Positions 9,378 through 39,020 of a stretch of DNA of 64,000 bases are shown here, piece by piece. Position numbers and translations under genes: made by a program. The DNA comes from Gemmatimonadales bacterium (GTDB lineage Bacteria; Gemmatimonadota; Gemmatimonadetes; Gemmatimonadales; JACORV01). Numbering within the stretch: the first letter of the stretch is position 1; every line of letters begins with the position of its first letter. The notes beneath the pieces were generated by a model. The model searched no databases. It saw nothing but the letters and a program-made list of their open reading frames with translations, and was not told the origin of the DNA. The stretch is from positions 8,556 to 72,555 of the forward strand of contig JAUYOW010000135.1 of the NCBI GenBank assembly GCA_030697825.1, given 5' to 3'.

Positions 9378-9403
9378 GGGGGTGTAGGGTGTAGGGTGTT
9401 GGG
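9378..9403 (+). repeat. GGGTGTA-type heptad repeat forming a canonical G-quadruplex motif (G5-TGTA-G3-TGTA-G3-TGTT-G3)
   Basis: Read directly: gggggtgtagggtgtagggtgttggg, 5 nt after the permease stop codon. Confidence 0.85.
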
Positions 9404-9424
9404 TGGTGGCGCGCGCGGGGCAGG

Positions 9425-9904
9425 CTAGGAGAGCCCCGGGAAGCGGTAGTACAGGTCCCCGTTGTCGTCCGAGTCCGTCTCCACGAAGCCGTTCACCGCC
9501 ATCTCGTTGAGCTGGCGCTGCACTTCCTTGAAGCCGCGGCCCGTCGCGGCCACCGCCTCGGCGACCGTCAGCTTGCCGCCGTTCTTCTCCGCCGCCGTCA
9601 CCAGCGACACTTCGAACTCCTCCGTCGTCCGAGGCGCGCGCCGGCCTCCGGCAGGCAACGCCCCCGCCACACCACCGGCCGCCAGCGCCTGCTGGCCAAG
9701 ACCCTGGATCAGGAGGCGGTTGTTGGCGTCCTCGATCATCCCTGGGATGAGGAACAGGTCGATGAACTGGCCGACGCCGAAGAGTCCGAGCGTGAAGAGG
9801 TAAAGGAGCCCGGTGCCGAGCTTCCCCGCGTAGATGCGCTGAAGGCCGCAAACCCCGAGGAAGCTCGCGGCCCAGAGGATGTAGGCGGTGTTCTTGTCCT
9901 TCAC
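9425..9904 (-). CDS. TM2 domain-containing membrane protein with a C-terminal soluble domain
   Basis: 159 aa. N-terminus KNTAYILWAASFLGVCGLQRIYAGKLGTGLLYLFTLGLFGVGQFIDLFLIP matches the TM2 domain pattern (two helices, G..G..RFY.G). Confidence 0.7.
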   Translation of the reverse strand: MKDKNTAYILWAASFLGVCGLQRIYAGKLGTGLLYLFTLGLFGVGQFIDLFLIPGMIEDANNRLLIQGLGQQALAAGGVAGALPAGGRRAPRTTEEFEVSLVTAAEKNGGKLTVAEAVAATGRGFKEVQRQLNEMAVNGFVETDSDDNGDLYYRFPGLS

Positions 9905-9936
9905 GTCTGAAAAGATAAGGGTGTGGGGTTTAGAGG

Positions 9937-9978
9937 GGGTAGGGTGTAGAAAGCACCCGTACCGCCTACACCCTACCC
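9937..9978. terminator. 13-bp perfect inverted repeat (GGGTAGGGTGTAG / CTACACCCTACCC), likely terminator hairpin downstream of the 10000..10209 gene
   Basis: Arms at 9937-9949 and 9966-9978 with a 16-nt loop, embedded in G-tract/C-tract heptad repeats. Confidence 0.5.
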
Positions 9979-9999
9979 GCTATACCCTACACCCTTCCG

Positions 10000-24821: not shown

Positions 24822-25748
24822 ATGGGCAGGAGACTGGCGTTTCCGTTCCTGGGCATGGCGTTGGCACTCTGGGCCTGCAGCGACAACACGGGTCCGGGGA
24901 GCACCACCTCTCAGGAACAGCTGGAGGTCCAGGCGGCGATGGACGCATCCGGCCTGGCCGACGAGGACTTCGGCGAGTTGGGCGCCGTGGCGGACTTCTC
25001 GGTCTCGGCGTTCAACCTCGGCCTCGACCTCTCGCCCGCGACGGACACGGTTCGCGCACCCCGCTTCTGGGGCCGTCGCCGTGGGCGGCCGGTCCGAGTG
25101 GTCCGCGACGTGGTCGTCACCGGCGACACGGCCCGCGCCACCATCAGCCGCAGCTTCCAGGGCACCTTCTTCCTCCGCCTGGGGGCCGACAGCACGGCGG
25201 CGGCTACTACCAAGCCGCTGAACGAGACGTTGGTCCAGCGCGCGGTCCTGGTGAGAGTGCCGAGGGATTCAGTTGTGGCAGGCGACTCCCTCAAGTGGCA
25301 GCTGGTCGCCCTGTCGCCGCAGGAGTACCGTGCGACGAGCGAAGTGGACCGAACCGTGCGCATCACCCGAGTGACGGTGTCGGTGAACGGCCAGGTGAAG
25401 ATCGACATCACCGACCCGCAGGCGCTCTACCGGGTGAACAACCAGGTCCCCCGGCTCGCGCTGGGCGACACGGTGCGGGTGGCCGCCGAGGTCACGAACA
25501 CGACGGGCGGCGACAACTTCCCGGCGACGTTCGTCTACCTGCACATCGACCGTGCGGACTCGACGCAGCGGTGGCGGCGCGAGCGGATGCTGCCCACACC
25601 GAACGGCGCTTTCGTCAGGACGTGGGTGGTAAGGTTGGGTGGCCGCGCCCGCTTCGCGGTTGACGCGCTCGATGCGGGGACGTTCACCACAGCGACCAGT
25701 GATGACTATCGGGCTAACATCTGGGCTGTACCATTCAGGATCGAGTGA
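24822..25748 (+). CDS. Hypothetical lipoprotein
   Basis: 308 aa. Lipobox ...ALALWAC followed by SDNTGPG. No family recognised. Confidence 0.6.
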   Translation: MGRRLAFPFLGMALALWACSDNTGPGSTTSQEQLEVQAAMDASGLADEDFGELGAVADFSVSAFNLGLDLSPATDTVRAPRFWGRRRGRPVRVVRDVVVTGDTARATISRSFQGTFFLRLGADSTAAATTKPLNETLVQRAVLVRVPRDSVVAGDSLKWQLVALSPQEYRATSEVDRTVRITRVTVSVNGQVKIDITDPQALYRVNNQVPRLALGDTVRVAAEVTNTTGGDNFPATFVYLHIDRADSTQRWRRERMLPTPNGAFVRTWVVRLGGRARFAVDALDAGTFTTATSDDYRANIWAVPFRIE

Positions 25749-25852
25749 TGAGTGATGGGTGAGGAGTGATGCGTGATGAGTGATGGGGCACGATGCGCAT
25801 TCCCCATCACTCATCACCTCTCACATATCACCCATCACCCATCACGCCTCAC
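25745..25852. repeat. Inverted arrays of GTGATGR heptads with a perfect 16-bp hairpin core; probable bidirectional terminator between convergent genes
   Basis: gtgatgagtgatgggg (25773-88) / ccccatcactcatcac (25802-17) with a 13-nt loop. Both arms extend as degenerate heptad repeats into the stop codons of both genes. Confidence 0.7.
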
Positions 25853-27150
25853 CTTCTCAACATCACTCTCACCGAATCCAGACTCCCATCATTCGGCGCC
25901 GGGCGAAGCCCGAGCACCGCACAAATCAGCTCATAGACGTGGACGTTCTGGAACGGCTCGACGACGAGCCCGCGCTGGAACGCCGGGCCTGCCGCGATGA
26001 AGATGGCGCGCATGGCCGGGTCGGCGTTGTCGTAACCGTGAGATCCGCCCTGGAGCCGCCGGCGGTTGCGGGCGTACCAATCCCGGGTCGTGAAGGTCCA
26101 GCCGTCCTCCGCCACACCCACCACGTCGGTGATCCGGGGGTTGTCCCGGTAGTGCCACCGTGCGGGCGTTTCGGCGCGACGGTAGAACCGGACGTGCGGC
26201 CCGGCGTTGGCCAGCGCGCGGGCCAGCGGTTCCGCGGGGGCGGTCCGGGACCTGAGTGACACGAAGGGACCGAGACTGACCTGGTCCACGGCGGCCGGAT
26301 CGAAAGAGTCGTCGAGGAACACCACGCGCTCCGGGCTGGTCTGGGCCATTCCGTGGTCGGACACCACGATCAGGTTGACCATGTCGCTCAGCCCGCGGGC
26401 CTCCAATCCGCTCACCAGGAGCCCGACGAGACTGTCCACCGTGCGCACGGCCCTCAGCGTTTCCGGTGACTCCGGGCCGTTCTCGTGACCGAAGTGGTCC
26501 ACCTCGCTGAAGTAGAGCGTGAGGAATGCGGGCCTCTGAAAGTCGGGGAGATCGAGCCAGCGCAGCACTTCGGCGACGCGCTCCCCTCCCGGTACCCGCC
26601 CGTCGAACTTCTTCCAGTAAGTGGGACGCAGGCCCGCGATCTCCACGTCGCTGCCCGGCCAGAAGTAGGCCGCACTCCGCCTCCCTTGCCGGGTGGCGGT
26701 GTTCCACAGCGGCTCGCCGCCCCACCAGCGGGTCTGCCACGCGCTCGAGGAGTCCGAGTACAGGAACCGGGCGCCGTCGGCCGGATCCACCATGCGGTTC
26801 CCGACGATGCCGTGATGCTCGGGGTAGAGCCCGGTGACCATGGAGTAGTGGTTGGGGAACGTGACCGTCGGGACGACCGGCACCATCCAGCGTGCGCGCA
26901 CTCCGCGCGCCATCAGCCGATCGAGGTTTGGCGTCGGCGTGCGGCCGAAGTAGTCCCAGCGGAAACCGTCGAGCGAGATCAGGATGACGGTGGGCGCGAG
27001 CCGCTCACCCTGCGCCGCGCGCGTCTGGCGCGGGCCGGCGCAGGCGACCACAGTGCCCACCAGTATCGCGATCGCGATCCACGTCCGTTTGACACGGTCC
27101 CGCCCCAGACCCACGTTGGCCCCCTTCGGCGACCCCAACGATGATATCAT
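25849..27150 (-). CDS. Ectonucleotide pyrophosphatase/phosphodiesterase (NPP, alkaline-phosphatase superfamily)
   Basis: 433 aa. ...ILISLDGFRWDY..., PTVTFPNHYSMVTGLYPEHHGIV, ...DHFGHENGP..., VVSDHGM..., GSHGYDN are hallmark NPP motifs. Confidence 0.85.
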   Translation of the reverse strand: MISSLGSPKGANVGLGRDRVKRTWIAIAILVGTVVACAGPRQTRAAQGERLAPTVILISLDGFRWDYFGRTPTPNLDRLMARGVRARWMVPVVPTVTFPNHYSMVTGLYPEHHGIVGNRMVDPADGARFLYSDSSSAWQTRWWGGEPLWNTATRQGRRSAAYFWPGSDVEIAGLRPTYWKKFDGRVPGGERVAEVLRWLDLPDFQRPAFLTLYFSEVDHFGHENGPESPETLRAVRTVDSLVGLLVSGLEARGLSDMVNLIVVSDHGMAQTSPERVVFLDDSFDPAAVDQVSLGPFVSLRSRTAPAEPLARALANAGPHVRFYRRAETPARWHYRDNPRITDVVGVAEDGWTFTTRDWYARNRRRLQGGSHGYDNADPAMRAIFIAAGPAFQRGLVVEPFQNVHVYELICAVLGLRPAPNDGSLDSVRVMLRR

Positions 27151-34327: not shown

Positions 34328-35188
34328 TCAGGGGAGTGTGGCCAGGAACTCGCGCGCCACCGCCACTATGTCCCGGTGCCGCACGTCCGCGAGGTAGTTG
34401 AGCCGCCGCATCGTGGCGTCGTCGATCCGGCCCGCCAGCTCCCGCAGCGCGGCGCCGACCTCGGGATGGCGCCGCAGCGTCTCGACTCGTACGACCGGCG
34501 CGGCCTGGTAGGGTGGGAAGTAGTGCCGGTCGTCCTCCAGTGCCACGAGGTGCAGCGCCTCGATCTGCCCGTCGGTGGAGTTCCCGGCGATCATGTCGAC
34601 CTGGCTGTCGGCGAGGGCGCGATACGTCAGTCCGAGGTCCATCACCCGCGGTGGGCCTGCGAACGGGAGGCCGTATGCTCTCTGGAGGCCGGCGAACCCG
34701 TCGGCGCGCTCCATGAATTCGTAGCCGAAGCCGCCGCGCCACGGCCTTGGCCGCAGCGCCGCCTGGGAAACCGTGCTGATCCCAGCCGCATCGTTCGCCC
34801 GGACTATCATCGCGAAGGTGTTGTTGAAGCCGAGCGGCGGGAGCCAGTCGGCACCGAATCGCCGCGAGTAGAGGCCGCGGACCTTCGCGAACGCCGTGTC
34901 GGGGTCCGTGATGACGGGCTGCTCGAGGATCGCAACGAGCGCAGTGCCGCTGTACTCGACGTACAGGTCGATCTGGCCGGCCGTGAGTGCCTGATGGCAC
35001 ACGAACGTCCCGCCCAGGTGGAACCGCCGCTCGACAGTGAGCGCCGTACGCCGCTCGATCTGCTGCGCGACGATCTCGCCCAGGATGTCCGACTCGGTGA
35101 AATTCTTCGATCCCACCACGATGCGGTCGCCGCCCCACCCACATGCCGAGACCACGACGAGCGCCACCAGTACCGACCTTCGCATCAT
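34328..35188 (-). CDS. Glycine betaine/choline-type (OpuBC/OpuCC-like) ABC transporter substrate-binding lipoprotein
   Basis: ATG 35188 (MMRRSVLVALVVVSAC...). VGSKNFTESDILGEIVAQQIE ... GQIDLYVEYSGTA is the OpuAC-domain signature. Confidence 0.85.
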   Translation of the reverse strand: MMRRSVLVALVVVSACGWGGDRIVVGSKNFTESDILGEIVAQQIERRTALTVERRFHLGGTFVCHQALTAGQIDLYVEYSGTALVAILEQPVITDPDTAFAKVRGLYSRRFGADWLPPLGFNNTFAMIVRANDAAGISTVSQAALRPRPWRGGFGYEFMERADGFAGLQRAYGLPFAGPPRVMDLGLTYRALADSQVDMIAGNSTDGQIEALHLVALEDDRHYFPPYQAAPVVRVETLRRHPEVGAALRELAGRIDDATMRRLNYLADVRHRDIVAVAREFLATLP

Positions 35189-35195
35189 GACCCCC

Positions 35196-35303
35196 ATCAC
35201 CTCATCAACTATTATCAACTATCACCTATCACCTATGATCACCTATCACCTATTATCACCTATCACCTCATCACCTATCACCTATACCTATCACCTCATC
35301 ACC
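35196..35303. repeat. Heptad tandem array: ATCACC x11 on the + strand, i.e. (GGUGAUA)n on the operon mRNA, occupying the permease/SBP intercistronic spacer
   Basis: Counted directly. Exact ATCACC starts at 35196, 35221, 35228, 35238, 35245, 35255, 35262, 35270, 35277, 35290 and 35298, plus ATCAAC variants. Confidence 0.9.
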
Positions 35304-35310
35304 TTGTAGG

Positions 35311-35952
35311 TCACCTCATCCCTCTCGGCGTCAACACCTTCTCCAAGCGCCCCAATACGAAATCCGCGACCAGCGCCATCAGCGCCGCCGGCAGCGCCCC
35401 GGCAAGTATGAGCGTGTCGTTCACCATGGCCACCCCGCGGAAGATGTACACGCCCAGACCGCCGGCGCCCACCGCCGCCGCGATCGTGGCGATTCCGATC
35501 CCCACGACCGTGGCCACCCGGATCCCGGCCATGATGACGCCCATCGCGAGCGGCATCTCCACCTGGCGGAGGATCTCCATATCGGTCATCCCCATGCCGA
35601 GCGCGGCCTCGCGCACCGCCGGATCGATGCCGCGGATCCCCGTGTAGGTATTGCGGATGATCGGCAGGAGCGCGTAGACGATCAGCGCAACGATCGCCGT
35701 CCGCGCGCCGATCCCTCCCAGGAAAGGCAGGGGGATGAGGAAGCCGAACAGCGCGAGGCTCGGGATCGTCTGGAGGACGTTGGCGGCGCCCAGCACCGGG
35801 CCGCTCAGCGAGGGCCGCCTGGCCAGCAGCACTCCGAGCGGCACGCCCACCAGGACGGCGGCGCCGGTCGCGGCGACCACGATGAGCAGGTGCTGGCCGG
35901 CGAGGTGCAGCACCTCCGCGCGGTTCCGGGAGAGGAAGTCGAGCAGGCTCAC
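35311..35952 (-). CDS. ABC transporter permease (OpuBB/OpuCB-like betaine/choline family)
   Basis: Track ORF trimmed to GTG 35952 (VSLLDFLSRNRAEV...), with a GTGA overlap with the ATPase gene. BPD-transporter EAA-like loop ...REAALGMGMTDMEILRQVEMPLA... Confidence 0.85.
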   Translation of the reverse strand: MSLLDFLSRNRAEVLHLAGQHLLIVVAATGAAVLVGVPLGVLLARRPSLSGPVLGAANVLQTIPSLALFGFLIPLPFLGGIGARTAIVALIVYALLPIIRNTYTGIRGIDPAVREAALGMGMTDMEILRQVEMPLAMGVIMAGIRVATVVGIGIATIAAAVGAGGLGVYIFRGVAMVNDTLILAGALPAALMALVADFVLGRLEKVLTPRGMR

Positions 35953-36707
35953 GACGCGAGCACCGCGGCGAAGGCCCGCGCCTCCGGATGCTCGGCGCCG
36001 CGGAATTCGGGTGGCGTCCCGAGGAACACGACGCGGCCCTCGGCGAACAGCGCGAGCCGCGAGCCGAGGCGGACCGCCTCGCGCACGTCGTGCGTCACGA
36101 ACACCATCGTCTTGCCGAGTCGCCCCGCGAGGTCCGCGAATTCCCGCTGAAGCTCGGCACGGGTGAGCGGATCGAGGGCGCCGAACGGTTCGTCGAGCAG
36201 CAGGAGCGGCGGGTCGGCGGCGAGAGCCCGGGCGATTCCCACCCGCTGCCGCTGGCCGCCGGACAACTCGTGCGGGAACCGCGCCGAGTAGCGATCGGCG
36301 TCGAGTCCCACGAGCGTTAGCATCTCCCGCACTCGCCCGCGGGTCCGCGCGGGCTCCCACCGTTCAAGCGCCGGCACCAGGCCGACGTTGCGCTCCACCG
36401 TGAAGTGCGGGAAGAGCCCGGTTTCCTGGATCACGTAGCCGATGCGCCGCCGCAGCCGGTGAGGCTCCCAGTCGCGGGTGGACCGGCCTTCGACGAGCAC
36501 GTCGCCGGCCGTCGGCCTCCGGAGGGCGTTGATGAGCTTGAGCGTGGTGGTCTTGCCGGAGCCGCTGCGGCCCAACAGGACGAGGGTCTCCCCCCGGCGG
36601 ACGTCGAGCGTGAGGTCGCGCACGGCGTCGTGCCCGCCCAGCCGGACGGCGACGCCCCGCAGCGAGACGACGGGTTCTGCTACGGCCCCCTCAGGCGCGG
36701 CGCACAC
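35949..36707 (-). CDS. ABC transporter ATP-binding protein (OpuBA/OpuCA-like); start tentative (GTG 36707)
   Basis: Walker A GRSGSGKTT, signature LSGGQRQR, Walker B LLLDEPFGALD. The chosen start overlaps the egtB stop by 17 nt. Confidence 0.85.
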   Translation of the reverse strand: MCAAPEGAVAEPVVSLRGVAVRLGGHDAVRDLTLDVRRGETLVLLGRSGSGKTTTLKLINALRRPTAGDVLVEGRSTRDWEPHRLRRRIGYVIQETGLFPHFTVERNVGLVPALERWEPARTRGRVREMLTLVGLDADRYSARFPHELSGGQRQRVGIARALAADPPLLLLDEPFGALDPLTRAELQREFADLAGRLGKTMVFVTHDVREAVRLGSRLALFAEGRVVFLGTPPEFRGAEHPEARAFAAVLAS

Positions 36708-38028
36708 ACCGGAACTTGGCGAACACGTATGGATAGTGCGGCTGGAACCAGTTGCGGAAGCTGCGGCGCACCAGTGCCGGGTCGGTCGCGTACGACGCAC
36801 CGAGCATCACGTAGTGCTGGTCGTCGAAGAAATCGGCCGAGTACCCGGCGTAGGTGCGCGCATAGGCCTTGAATCCGGGGAACGGCCCGAACCGGCTCTC
36901 CGTCCACTCCCACCCGTTACCGACGAGGTCGAGCACGCCCCAGGCGCTCGCGCCCGCCGGGTGCGCGCCCACCGGCGTCGGCGCCCAGTTTCGAAAACCG
37001 AAGTTCCCGTGCTCCGGGGCAGGCGCGGTGTCTCCCCACGGATAGGCGCGCGAGCCTCCGTCCTGCGTTCCATACGCCGCGCGGTGCAGCTCGGCCTCCG
37101 TCGGCAGCGCGGCCCCCTTCCACTGCGCGTACGCTTTCGCCTCCGCCCAGCTCACGTACACCGGCCAATCGGCGACCTGATCCAGCGGCAGCTCGTCGAA
37201 GAGGGTGCGGTAGCGCCATCCTGCGCCGCCCCGGACCCAGAACGTCGGATGATCGTGCCCCACGCGCAACCGCCACGCCCAGTCGTCTTCGGCCCAGAGC
37301 TCCGCGCGCTCGTACCCGCCCGCTTCCATGAATTCGAGGTACTCGGTGTTTCGTACCGGCGTTCGGTCCATGGTCAGCGACGCGACGCGCGTGTGGTGCT
37401 CGGGGAACTCGTTGTCCCAGCCGAACTGAGTCCGCTCGAAGTCGGCGCCGAGCGTCACCGCACCGCCTGGGACCGGGACGTCGCCGTTGGCTGCCGCCCC
37501 TTGGGTCCGGTACGCCGGGAGATCGCGCGGCTTCAGCTTCAGCGCCGGTGGCAGCTGCTGGATCATGTAGAGGAGAGTCTCATGGTGCATCAGTTCATGC
37601 TCGATCACGATCTGCCAGATCCGCCCGCGGTCGGCGAGCACGTCCCGCCCCTCGAGCGCCGCCACGTCGCCGAACGCGGCACGTATCGCGTCACGCACCC
37701 GGTCGCGGTACGCCAGCACCTGCGCCGGCGGGGGCCAGTCGGCGGGGTTAGCGGGCTCGTAGGCATCCACTCCCACGGGATCGATTCCGCGCTGGAACAG
37801 CGCGTCGAAGGCCGGGTCGAAGGGCTCGCGGCCGAGCACCCCGCGCCACACCTGGTTCCATCCGAACGCGGGGAGATGGCCCACGTAGAAAATGAATGGC
37901 TGTCGGAGGGCGATCGGCCGCGCGAGCAGTGCCTGGTCGGTGAGCAATGCGAAGATACTGTCGGAGCGCTCCCATGCGGCCTCGAGCCGCTCGCGGAGGG
38001 AGGTGTCGGACGCGAGCACGGCCGTCAT
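36691..38028 (-). CDS. egtB: Ergothioneine biosynthesis sulfoxide synthase EgtB (DinB-like N-domain plus FGE-sulfatase domain)
   Basis: ATG 38028 (MTAVLASDTSLRERL...). ...PFIFYVGHLPAF..., ...VIEHELMHHETLLYM..., ...GNGWEWT..., and a C-terminal ...FRNWF.P....FAKFRC style ending typical of EgtB. Adjacent to egtD with an ATGA overlap. Confidence 0.85.
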   Translation of the reverse strand: MTAVLASDTSLRERLEAAWERSDSIFALLTDQALLARPIALRQPFIFYVGHLPAFGWNQVWRGVLGREPFDPAFDALFQRGIDPVGVDAYEPANPADWPPPAQVLAYRDRVRDAIRAAFGDVAALEGRDVLADRGRIWQIVIEHELMHHETLLYMIQQLPPALKLKPRDLPAYRTQGAAANGDVPVPGGAVTLGADFERTQFGWDNEFPEHHTRVASLTMDRTPVRNTEYLEFMEAGGYERAELWAEDDWAWRLRVGHDHPTFWVRGGAGWRYRTLFDELPLDQVADWPVYVSWAEAKAYAQWKGAALPTEAELHRAAYGTQDGGSRAYPWGDTAPAPEHGNFGFRNWAPTPVGAHPAGASAWGVLDLVGNGWEWTESRFGPFPGFKAYARTYAGYSADFFDDQHYVMLGASYATDPALVRRSFRNWFQPHYPYVFAKFRCVRRA

Positions 38029-39020
38029 GCCGCCGCCCCGTTCGCCATGCGGCGGAGCAGCCCCAGCGCGAAGAGGTGTTCCGGGTCCGTGTACCACCGC
38101 TCGATCGCCAGCCCCGTGCCGGCCAGCAGCGCCGCGAACGACTCAGCCGTGTACTTGCAGCTGATCTCGGTTCGGATCTCGTCGCCGGGCGCGAAGTCGA
38201 GGACGAGGCCCGCAGCGGGAATGCGGACGTGCGAGACGCGCGTGGCCGCGAGCCTCATCTCGATCCACGCGCGCCGGCGGTCGTAGAAGGCGACGTGCGC
38301 GAACGCGTCAGGATCGAAGTCAGAGCCCAGCTCGGTGTTGAGGTGCCGCAGGATGTTGCGGTTGAACTCGGCGGTGACGCCCGCCGTGTCGTTGTACGCG
38401 GCCTCGAGGCGCACCGGGTCCTTCACCAGGTCCACGCCGACCAGGAACCCGTCGCCCGGCGCCAGCTGCGCGCTGACCCGCGAGAGGAAAGCCGGGACCT
38501 CATCGGGATGCAGGTTCCCGATAGTGCCCGCGAAGAGGACCGCGAGGCGCCCGCCGCCGGGCCCTAAGGCCGACAGATCTTCGGTGAAGTCTCCCACCAA
38601 GCCGCGGACGTCCACCGCCGGATAGCGCGCCGCCAGGCGGCGCACCGACTCGGCCACGAACGACGCGTTGATGTCGAACAGCCGGCAGCGTGCCTGCCGC
38701 TTCGCGCGCGTCATCGAATCCAGCAGCAGGCCGATCTTGCGGCCGGCGCCTGAACCGAGCTCCACGATCTCCGAGGGTCGCACTCGTTCGACGACCTCGG
38801 CGGCGATGGTCTCCAGCAGGCGCTCTTCGGTGCGCGTCTGGTAGTACTCGGGGAGCGCCGTGATGGCCTCGAAGAGCCGGCTCCCGCGGTCGTCGTAGAA
38901 GTACTTGCTGGGGAGCCAGGGCCGCGGCGCCATGAGGCCGGCGCGGACCTCCGCCGCCATGCGCTCCGTCCGCGCTCCGTTCCGCCGAGCCGCCTCGACC
39001 GGTGCGGGAACCTCTGCCAT
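38025..39020 (-). CDS. egtD: L-histidine N-alpha-methyltransferase EgtD
   Basis: ATG 39020 (MAEVPAPVEAARR...). ...LPSKYFYDDRGSRLFEAITALPEYYQTRTE..., ELGSGAGRK, ...FAGTIGNL... match EgtD. Confidence 0.85.
   Translation of the reverse strand: MAEVPAPVEAARRNGARTERMAAEVRAGLMAPRPWLPSKYFYDDRGSRLFEAITALPEYYQTRTEERLLETIAAEVVERVRPSEIVELGSGAGRKIGLLLDSMTRAKRQARCRLFDINASFVAESVRRLAARYPAVDVRGLVGDFTEDLSALGPGGGRLAVLFAGTIGNLHPDEVPAFLSRVSAQLAPGDGFLVGVDLVKDPVRLEAAYNDTAGVTAEFNRNILRHLNTELGSDFDPDAFAHVAFYDRRRAWIEMRLAATRVSHVRIPAAGLVLDFAPGDEIRTEISCKYTAESFAALLAGTGLAIERWYTDPEHLFALGLLRRMANGAAA

Follow-up and report, generated by a model that had tools for sequence, protein, structure and literature searches.

The intercistronic spacer that separates an ABC permease gene from the gene of a substrate-binding protein (SBP) is nearly filled by a degenerate tandem array, which is best explained as one member of a genome-wide class of 7-8-nt repeats, a known class whose mechanism is still unexplained. 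In the reading that we consider probable, the array is a solo (one-armed) representative of these intergenic repeats, its terminal unit acts as the Shine-Dalgarno (SD) sequence of the SBP gene and the remaining units would at most be passive standby sites. That the array is a dedicated stack of ribosome sites is less likely. The window, by which we mean the whole stretch of 64,000 nt that was analysed, belongs to a MAG of 3.37 Mb (69% G+C, 333 contigs) whose nearest loci among public genomes are those of Gemmatimonadota, and the habitat of the source bacterium is given as soil or groundwater. The coordinates of the features are collected in Table 1.

Table 1. Features of the array and its surroundings, in window positions.
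Feature	Position	Strand	Evidence
Degenerate tandem array, about 14 (A/G)GGUGAU units (mRNA strand)	35196..35304	-	TRF, motif counts
Intercistronic spacer, 122 nt, nearly all array, predicted unstructured RNA	35189..35310	-	
Terminal unit GAGGUGAU, likely SD of the SBP gene, 7 nt 5' of the AUG	35196..35203	-	
Unit-like GAUGAGGUGAC, overlapping the last two permease codons and giving the UGA stop (35313-35311)	35305..35320	-	
Predicted local RNA hairpin (66 nt), -22.7 kcal/mol, z = -1.72	35145..35210	-	
ABC permease (BPD_transp_1), 213 aa, upstream cistron, TGA stop 35313-35311	35311..35952	-	
OpuAC-type substrate-binding lipoprotein, 286 aa, downstream cistron, ATG 35188, MMRRSVLVALVVVSAC lipoprotein signal	34328..35188	-	
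GTGAT-family inverted pair (GAGUGAU)n/(AUCACYC)n, 13-nt loop, between convergent genes	25743..25853	.	

Results

Architecture of the array and its operon

The operon consists, in this order, of an egtB-like gene (DinB_2 plus FGE-sulfatase), the ABC ATPase gene, the permease gene, the array and the SBP gene. The position of the EgtB-like gene directly upstream of the genes for the ABC ATPase, the permease and the OpuAC-type binding protein (34328-39020, minus strand) suggests that the system serves ergothioneine- or hercynine-related uptake. A gene pair of the xanthine dehydrogenase family follows. No Rfam family matched across the operon, and no intrinsic terminator was predicted in the spacer.

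On the mRNA strand the first part of the spacer can be parsed as CCUACA AGGUGAU GAGGUGAU AGGUAU AGGUGAU AGGUGAU GAGGUGAU AGGUGAU AAU AGGUGAU AGGUGAU and the remainder as CAU AGGUGAU AGGUGAU AGUUGAU AAU AGUUGAU GAGGUGAU GGGGGUC AUG. GGUGAU is present in 11 units and GUUGAU in two, one further unit is truncated, and never more than two perfect units are adjacent. TRF describes the array with a period of 7 nt (12.1 copies of the unit TATCACC, score 98, 80% matches and 18% indels), and fits longer periods marginally better, with a score of 106 at 17 nt and of 108 at 24 nt. The preliminary description of this DNA had presented the spacer as almost entirely a short-period repeat, with ATCACC occurring 11 times on the plus strand between 35196 and 35303 and with ATCACCTC (that is, GAGGUGAU on the mRNA) at 35196-203, 35262-69 and 35290-97, and all of this was reproduced exactly; the expectation for ATCACC in the whole 64-kb window, both strands included, is 24.5. 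Its statement that the copies follow mostly a period of 7 is slightly generous, several gaps between consecutive copies being 7 nt long within a series of 25, 7, 10, 7, 10, 7, 8, 7, 13 and 8 nt. Both TRF and the count of ATCACC (11 times in 108 nt) indicate a unit in the 5-11-nt range repeated head to tail beyond chance length, as in LSSRs. The sense strand of the spacer contains 5 C in 122 nt, corresponding to 5 G on the plus strand. The 3' end of the permease gene (G-M-R-stop, GGGAUGAGGUGA) already resembles a repeat unit, and the permease orthologue of the relative G007 is three codons longer at its C-terminus (..PRGMRIGS*).

The array is not an assembly artefact, because the independent Logan assembly of run SRR13727529, whose contig encodes the identical SBP and shows 6 differences from the window in 6,861 positions, has an identical 122-nt spacer. 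Among contigs from metagenomes, the search for the same species returned none closer than 70% protein identity. Two other readings of the letters were discarded. A stop-free frame on the plus strand (35037-35309) was dismissed as coding since repeated TATCACC simply lacks stop codons, and a G-quadruplex was rejected since the array has GG runs only; such a structure would fit instead the GGGGAGC, GGGAGCC and GGGTGTA families described below.

Complementarity to the 16S rRNA tail and predicted RNA structure

No 16S gene is assembled in this MAG, and the tail was therefore taken from same-family relatives. The 16S genes of six relatives, two of them of the same family, end in GGATCACCTCC-TTTCT or -TTAAC; those of the same family end in ...GGATCACCTCCTTTCT, to which the array units are complementary, as the preliminary description had proposed. 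Duplex energies computed with the tail GAUCACCUCCUUUCU gave 12 non-overlapping predicted sites in the spacer at -9 kcal/mol or better (-9 to -13 kcal/mol) and none on its antisense strand. Among 54,914 other 122-nt windows of the genome the highest number of such sites was 9, which places the spacer at the top of the genome. The SD-likeness of the array is thus real and extreme.

Our own gene calls (3,284 genes, 92% of the genome coding) show sharp peaks of GGAGG, GGAG and GAGG at -15 to -9 before the starts, together with small peaks of GAGGUG and AGGUGA at -11 to -9. Since the genes of the organism display these canonical SD peaks, the terminal unit, with a predicted duplex of -13 kcal/mol, is a credible predicted SD. 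It is also the only unit at the usual SD spacing (about 5-10 nt before the start), the other 13 or so lying 15-115 nt upstream, and in this the earlier claim that the last unit alone is placed as a ribosome-binding site (RBS) was upheld. Folding of the spacer RNA is close to that of shuffled sequence (z = +0.41). Around the start, early signal-peptide codons are predicted to pair with the AUG and with the 3' half of the SD in the hairpin of Table 1, a structure equalled by 13 of 200 shuffles. The combination of an unstructured array and a predicted hairpin at the RBS and AUG is a modelled geometry in which a standby site could matter.

These properties bear on the strongest alternative, a landing pad maintained by selection, in which the dozen or so units would capture 30S subunits, or keep the ribosomes that end at the permease stop, and feed them to the sequestered SBP start, giving an excess of binding protein over the membrane components after the loss of coupling. 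The genome maximum of anti-SD sites and the predicted sequestration of the RBS count for such a pad and against our preferred reading. Unstructured upstream tails are moreover described to have standby function (PMC5934652, PMC5924895), and multiple SD-like sequences are enriched in the efficient 5'-UTRs of an E. coli library (PMC5389652). The orientation of the arrays and the state of the same junction in relatives, considered below, weigh on the other side, as does the modest z value of the hairpin.

A genome-wide class of 7- and 8-nt arrays

When TRF was run on the whole genome, arrays of periods 7 and 8, and of these periods alone, were concentrated between genes: about 303 are intergenic, non-coding DNA amounting to some 8% of the genome, vs 167 in the coding 92%. 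Single unit families recur at many intergenic loci. GGGGAGC is found at 64 loci, GCAGAGTT at 34, GGGAGCC at 32, CTGCGCGT at 24, GGCCGTT together with AGCCGTT at 18 and AGGGTGT at 10, and the GTGAT family, to which the array belongs, at about 40. The median distance from the upstream stop codon to the start of an array is 6 nt. About a third of the intergenic arrays (99 of some 303) have an inverted partner within 150 nt and form hairpin pairs; one of them, the pair at 25743-25853, shows that the GTGAT unit family is also used as hairpin arms. A second inverted pair of the window, at 9918-9995 (GGGTGTAG... / CTACACCC...), is the downstream one of two (GGGTGTA)n arrays that flank a small minus-strand gene (about 9430-9905), the other being at 9380-9405; GGGTGTA units are G-quadruplex-capable and occur at about 10 loci of the genome.

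Two relatives, sampled over 200 kb each, contain similar arrays made of other units (GTGAGAG, CCAATCC, AGGACGA and CACAGAGA). Three or more GGTGAT units were found in 17 of 401 Gemmatimonadota genomes searched, all of one order. In several Gemmatimonadota MAGs, perfect GGTGAT(A/T/G) arrays occur at the extreme ends of contigs (G245:C310:5-45, G367:C167:5-45, G393:C26:5-80 and G202:C99:7-26). Short-read assemblies evidently end at long arrays of this family, and the number of arrays counted in a MAG is therefore a minimum.

Orientation relative to transcription

Solo arrays of the GTGAT family in co-directional spacers of this genome are sense in 16 cases vs antisense in 5, the rest of the family being hairpin pairs or lying between convergent or divergent genes, and in the loci fetched from other Gemmatimonadota the ratio is 7 sense vs 6 antisense. 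A strictly sense family was accordingly rejected. When all families are taken together, 81 arrays have their purine-rich strand on the mRNA vs 47 with the reverse orientation (about 2:1), whatever the unit, and the ratio is 25:9 in tight, operon-like spacers vs 31:19 in loose ones. The non-SD family GCAGAGTT has a bias of 14:2. Because the preference is common to all purine-rich arrays, the sense bias is a property of the whole class. These counts use crude gene calls of our own, in which C-rich-sense arrays are partly hidden: they have no stop codons, ORF calls run through them, and they are consequently under-counted as intergenic.

The octamer GAGGUGAU behaves more strictly: it is sense in four of four co-directional spacers (TRF), and about 11 sense arrays contain it, compared with no clearly antisense array between genes. 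Its restriction to the sense strand is compatible with seeding from SD sequences or with selection. No functional theme was found among the genes downstream of sense GTGAT arrays, which encode a nitroreductase, PNP, YceI, FtsY, an ABC ATPase, UPF0047, ThiS, FolD and permeases. With regard to the landing pad, the sense bias in this genome and the confinement of GAGGUGAU to sense arrays speak for it and count against the preferred reading, whereas the ratio in other genomes, a bias no stronger than that of GCAGAGTT and the lack of a common theme downstream speak against it.

The same junction in relatives

In the same-genus genome, whose SBP is 78% identical, the permease-SBP spacer is G+C-rich and has no array. 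The G012 junction has a (GTCGACA)n hairpin and the G007 junction (GGUCUUA)n, in DNA form (GGTCTTA)n. Other Gemmatimonadota present at this place a (GAAGGCU)n hairpin, (GGGCGGAC)n, (GUUGGACG)n, (GGCGGAUG)n or (UUAGACGG)n, and (GTTGGACG)n and (GGCGGATG)n are listed in DNA form among the relatives. Some junctions carry REP-like palindromes, and many show an AUGA-type stop/start overlap with no spacer. Of 56 orthologous junctions, about 11 have a 7-8-nt array; their units represent five or more unrelated sequences, and unit or length differs between related genomes. As a separate observation, the (GTCGACA)n hairpin 5' of the SBP orthologue in locus L015 (JBGOSS010000027.1) has GGAGG in its loop, and its arms may present, not hide, the SD of that gene.

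Since the junctions of relatives have unrelated arrays or none, the array appears from these comparisons to be young and dispensable for SBP expression, with a unit sequence that is not conserved. The same facts, namely a gene pair without the array in the same-genus orthologue and many others, and unrelated non-SD units elsewhere, reduce the landing pad to an explanation that we hold to be possible and yet unlikely.

The preliminary description had seen in the units a match to the 16S tail and, in those upstream of the last one, possible standby or decoy sites, ribosome pause sites, regulator-binding sites or a tract of variable copy number. Complementarity, placement and a standby-compatible geometry are in its favour, and orientation, copy number and the junctions of relatives count against a dedicated device. 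The outcomes that it had itself named as refuting are largely those observed: GTGAT-family arrays occur in both orientations, here and elsewhere, in hairpin pairs and between convergent genes as well as in antisense solo arrays, and the copy number is the same in two assemblies 6 SNPs apart. Thus, the array is to be regarded as a member of the repeat class and not as a purpose-built element.

Inverted arrays and PF05635 cassettes

The genome has four PF05635 genes (23S_rRNA_IVP; 23S-IVS/Avd-like), and inverted arrays bracket all four, each with a different family of arm units: GGCACGGR; GCAGAGTT; GGGGAGTTA plus GGGGAGAAA; and (GGGGAGC)3GGTWCC. Two of the four, GGGGAGC and GCAGAGTT, also form array families that are abundant in the genome, and immediately upstream of the GTGAT array at C107 the GGGGAGTTA unit is repeated as well. 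Brackets of this type also enclose 19 of the 23 PF05635 genes of four relatives. Read in gene orientation, each bracketed gene is preceded by a G-rich arm and followed by a C-rich one. One cassette of G367 has (GTGATTA)n and (TAATCAC)n arms. PF05635 proteins resemble Avd of diversity-generating retroelements (PMC10053308), and classical intervening sequences (IVSs) are excised by RNase III at the stem formed by their terminal inverted repeats (PMC4990558).

Palindromic elements of 90-110 bp were observed in G000 immediately after stop codons (C74:5412-5500, C79:4913-5017, C148:7322-7433, C179:2289-2378 and C304:14375-14465). They are composed of (GGGGAGC)3-GGTACCTT, a variable core of 30-50 nt and AAGGTACC-(GCTCCCC)3, the form taken by GGGGAGC- and GGGAGCC-family arrays when they are paired, and their G-rich arm is a canonical G-quadruplex motif. 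Their arms match the (GGGGAGC)3GGTACC arms of the PF05635 cassette C148:1582-2087, and by this resemblance they look like gene-less derivatives of the cassette.

Outside the window, at G000:C92:108227-108538 (locus L226), a PF05635 gene with (GGCACGGR)n brackets abuts a 23S 3' fragment that covers positions 2595-2925 of the Rfam LSU model and reaches the contig end; on its other side there is a repeat hairpin with a T-run and then an era-like GTPase gene. The locus must be a genuine intervening sequence of the 23S gene, close to helix 98, or else a join that the assembly made across the repeat arms.

The organisation of an IVS-like cassette or of its hairpin derivatives, which other arrays of the genome display, is absent from the permease-SBP array. 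No inverted partner was found within 2 kb on either side of it, the 30 loci with GGTGAT arrays that were fetched have no PF05635 gene next to the array, and none of the PF05635 cassettes found in this genome has GTGAT arms. Judged by these arrangements, its relation to the cassettes would be one of family resemblance only. A bolder proposal would trace solo SD-like arrays to the 5' arms of Avd-like (PF05635) IVS-type cassettes, as detached or derived copies of them, would have these cassettes, and not slippage alone, seed the bacterial excess of 7-8-nt repeats, and would have this particular arm co-opted as a multi-SD standby platform for uncoupled, high-level translation of the SBP from a hairpin-sequestered start. 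Taken jointly, these statements are in our judgement distinctly improbable. The bracketing of PF05635 genes gives the cassette link some weight, and the lack of a partner within 2 kb and of a GTGAT-armed cassette here stands against it.

Discussion

In this lineage the paired form of the 7-8-nt repeats constitutes the arms of IVS-like hairpins and PF05635-gene cassettes, and in the preferred reading the solo array would have been inserted or seeded at the permease-SBP junction after the split from the sequenced congener. Local duplication may have enlarged it, leaving the 17- and 24-nt higher-order periods, with later decay through point changes and small indels. Its 5' end would now provide the permease stop codon and its 3' end the SBP SD GAGGUGAU, the array taking the place of the stop/start overlap present in more distant relatives. 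The resemblance to an anti-16S-tail sequence would be a property of the unit family and would not in itself indicate design, and the upstream units would represent at most passive extra landing or standby sites for 30S subunits. The G-rich, C-poor strand is on the mRNA probably because the reverse orientation would be a long untranslated C-rich/G-poor tract, a likely loading site for Rho, which is encoded in the genome; Rho may thus counter-select about 100 nt of C-rich untranslated orientation inside operons.

Two further alternatives were considered. The array could be an AT-rich island that acts at the DNA level, carrying an internal SBP promoter or an array of binding sites for a regulator or a nucleoid protein. 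Its G+C content of about 40% within a 69% G+C genome is in line with this, as are three weak sigma-70-like matches inside it vs 0.2 expected, one of them on the sense strand (GTGATA-18-GATAAT, 35281-35252). However, the matches reach 9/12 only against a sigma-70 consensus that may not be that of Gemmatimonadota, there is no palindromic operator, other families of the repeat class are G+C-rich and relatives have arrays of unrelated units instead, and we regard this island as very unlikely. Hardly credible is a contingency locus in which slipped-strand mispairing alters the number of units and SBP expression is thereby switched or tuned (phase variation): a tandem repeat does sit between the stop and start codons, and heptamer SSR length varies among related Xanthomonas genomes (PMC4692102), but the tract is far from the near-perfect one of phase-variable SSRs, too degenerate to slip easily as the preliminary description had envisaged, its copy number was identical in the one assembly comparison made and lies outside any reading frame, and a functional last unit would stay put.

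A striking stack of SD sequences need not be a translation device, and in heptamer-rich lineages it can be one flavour of spacer-filling repeat. This matters for the annotation of RBSs, for the reading of intergenic "regulatory" repeats in MAGs and for the interpretation of assembly breaks. The array is also a natural test case, in which a predicted unstructured leader of 122 nt with 12 strong predicted sites precedes a partly sequestered start, and a design based on it could measure the interplay of upstream SD-like sites, Rho and lost translational coupling. The inverted-array bracketing of PF05635 genes, here and in the relatives, adds weight to a testable origin of heptamer repeats.

Comparison with known systems

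Heptameric intergenic SSRs are known from Xanthomonas (GGGAATC) and Nostoc (GGGGAYT) (Rehm et al. 2015, PMC4692102), and LSSRs were surveyed by Mrazek et al. (2007), as summarised in PMC4679880 and PMC4692102. Going by the accounts available in these sources, the arrays described here resemble those of Xanthomonas and Nostoc in their 7-nt tandem units and strong enrichment between genes, with one or few unit families and roughly 100-200 loci per genome, in the presence of some inverted, hairpin-capable pairs and in neighbouring genes without a common theme. They differ in that several unrelated 7- and 8-nt families coexist in this genome, and in that the GTGAT family mirrors the 16S tail and, with GG runs only, is not G-quadruplex-prone.

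A translational role has been suggested for the TAACTGA direct repeats of marine Beggiatoaceae solely on account of their position (MacGregor 2015, PMC4679880). As there, heptamer arrays are found directly 5' of start codons in many unrelated operons; TAACTGA, however, is not SD-like and canonical RBSs are rare at the sites of these repeats, whereas here the unit is SD-like, the organism uses canonical SD sequences and both orientations occur.

The 23S rRNA intervening sequences with an S23p/PF05635 ORF of Coxiella and Leptospira (PMC4990558) offer a third parallel. PF05635 genes in this genome and in its relatives are likewise bracketed by complementary terminal repeats able to form a long stem, and one copy abuts a 23S rRNA fragment. 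Unlike in the classical elements, the arms consist of 7-8-nt units in tandem and the majority of copies are found between protein genes, and the array itself is further removed from them, being solo, with no PF05635 ORF nearby and no possibility of a stem.

[quoted passage not shown] Known standby sites, in contrast, function without SD complementarity and do not consist of tandem repeats.

As far as the literature was searched, Gemmatimonadota are not covered by the papers on heptamer repeats (PMC4692102, PMC4679880). The class as such is already known from Xanthomonas, Nostoc and Beggiatoaceae; new here are the phylum, a unit family that mimics the SD sequence, the recurrent turnover at one junction and the bracketing of PF05635 genes in four cases of four.
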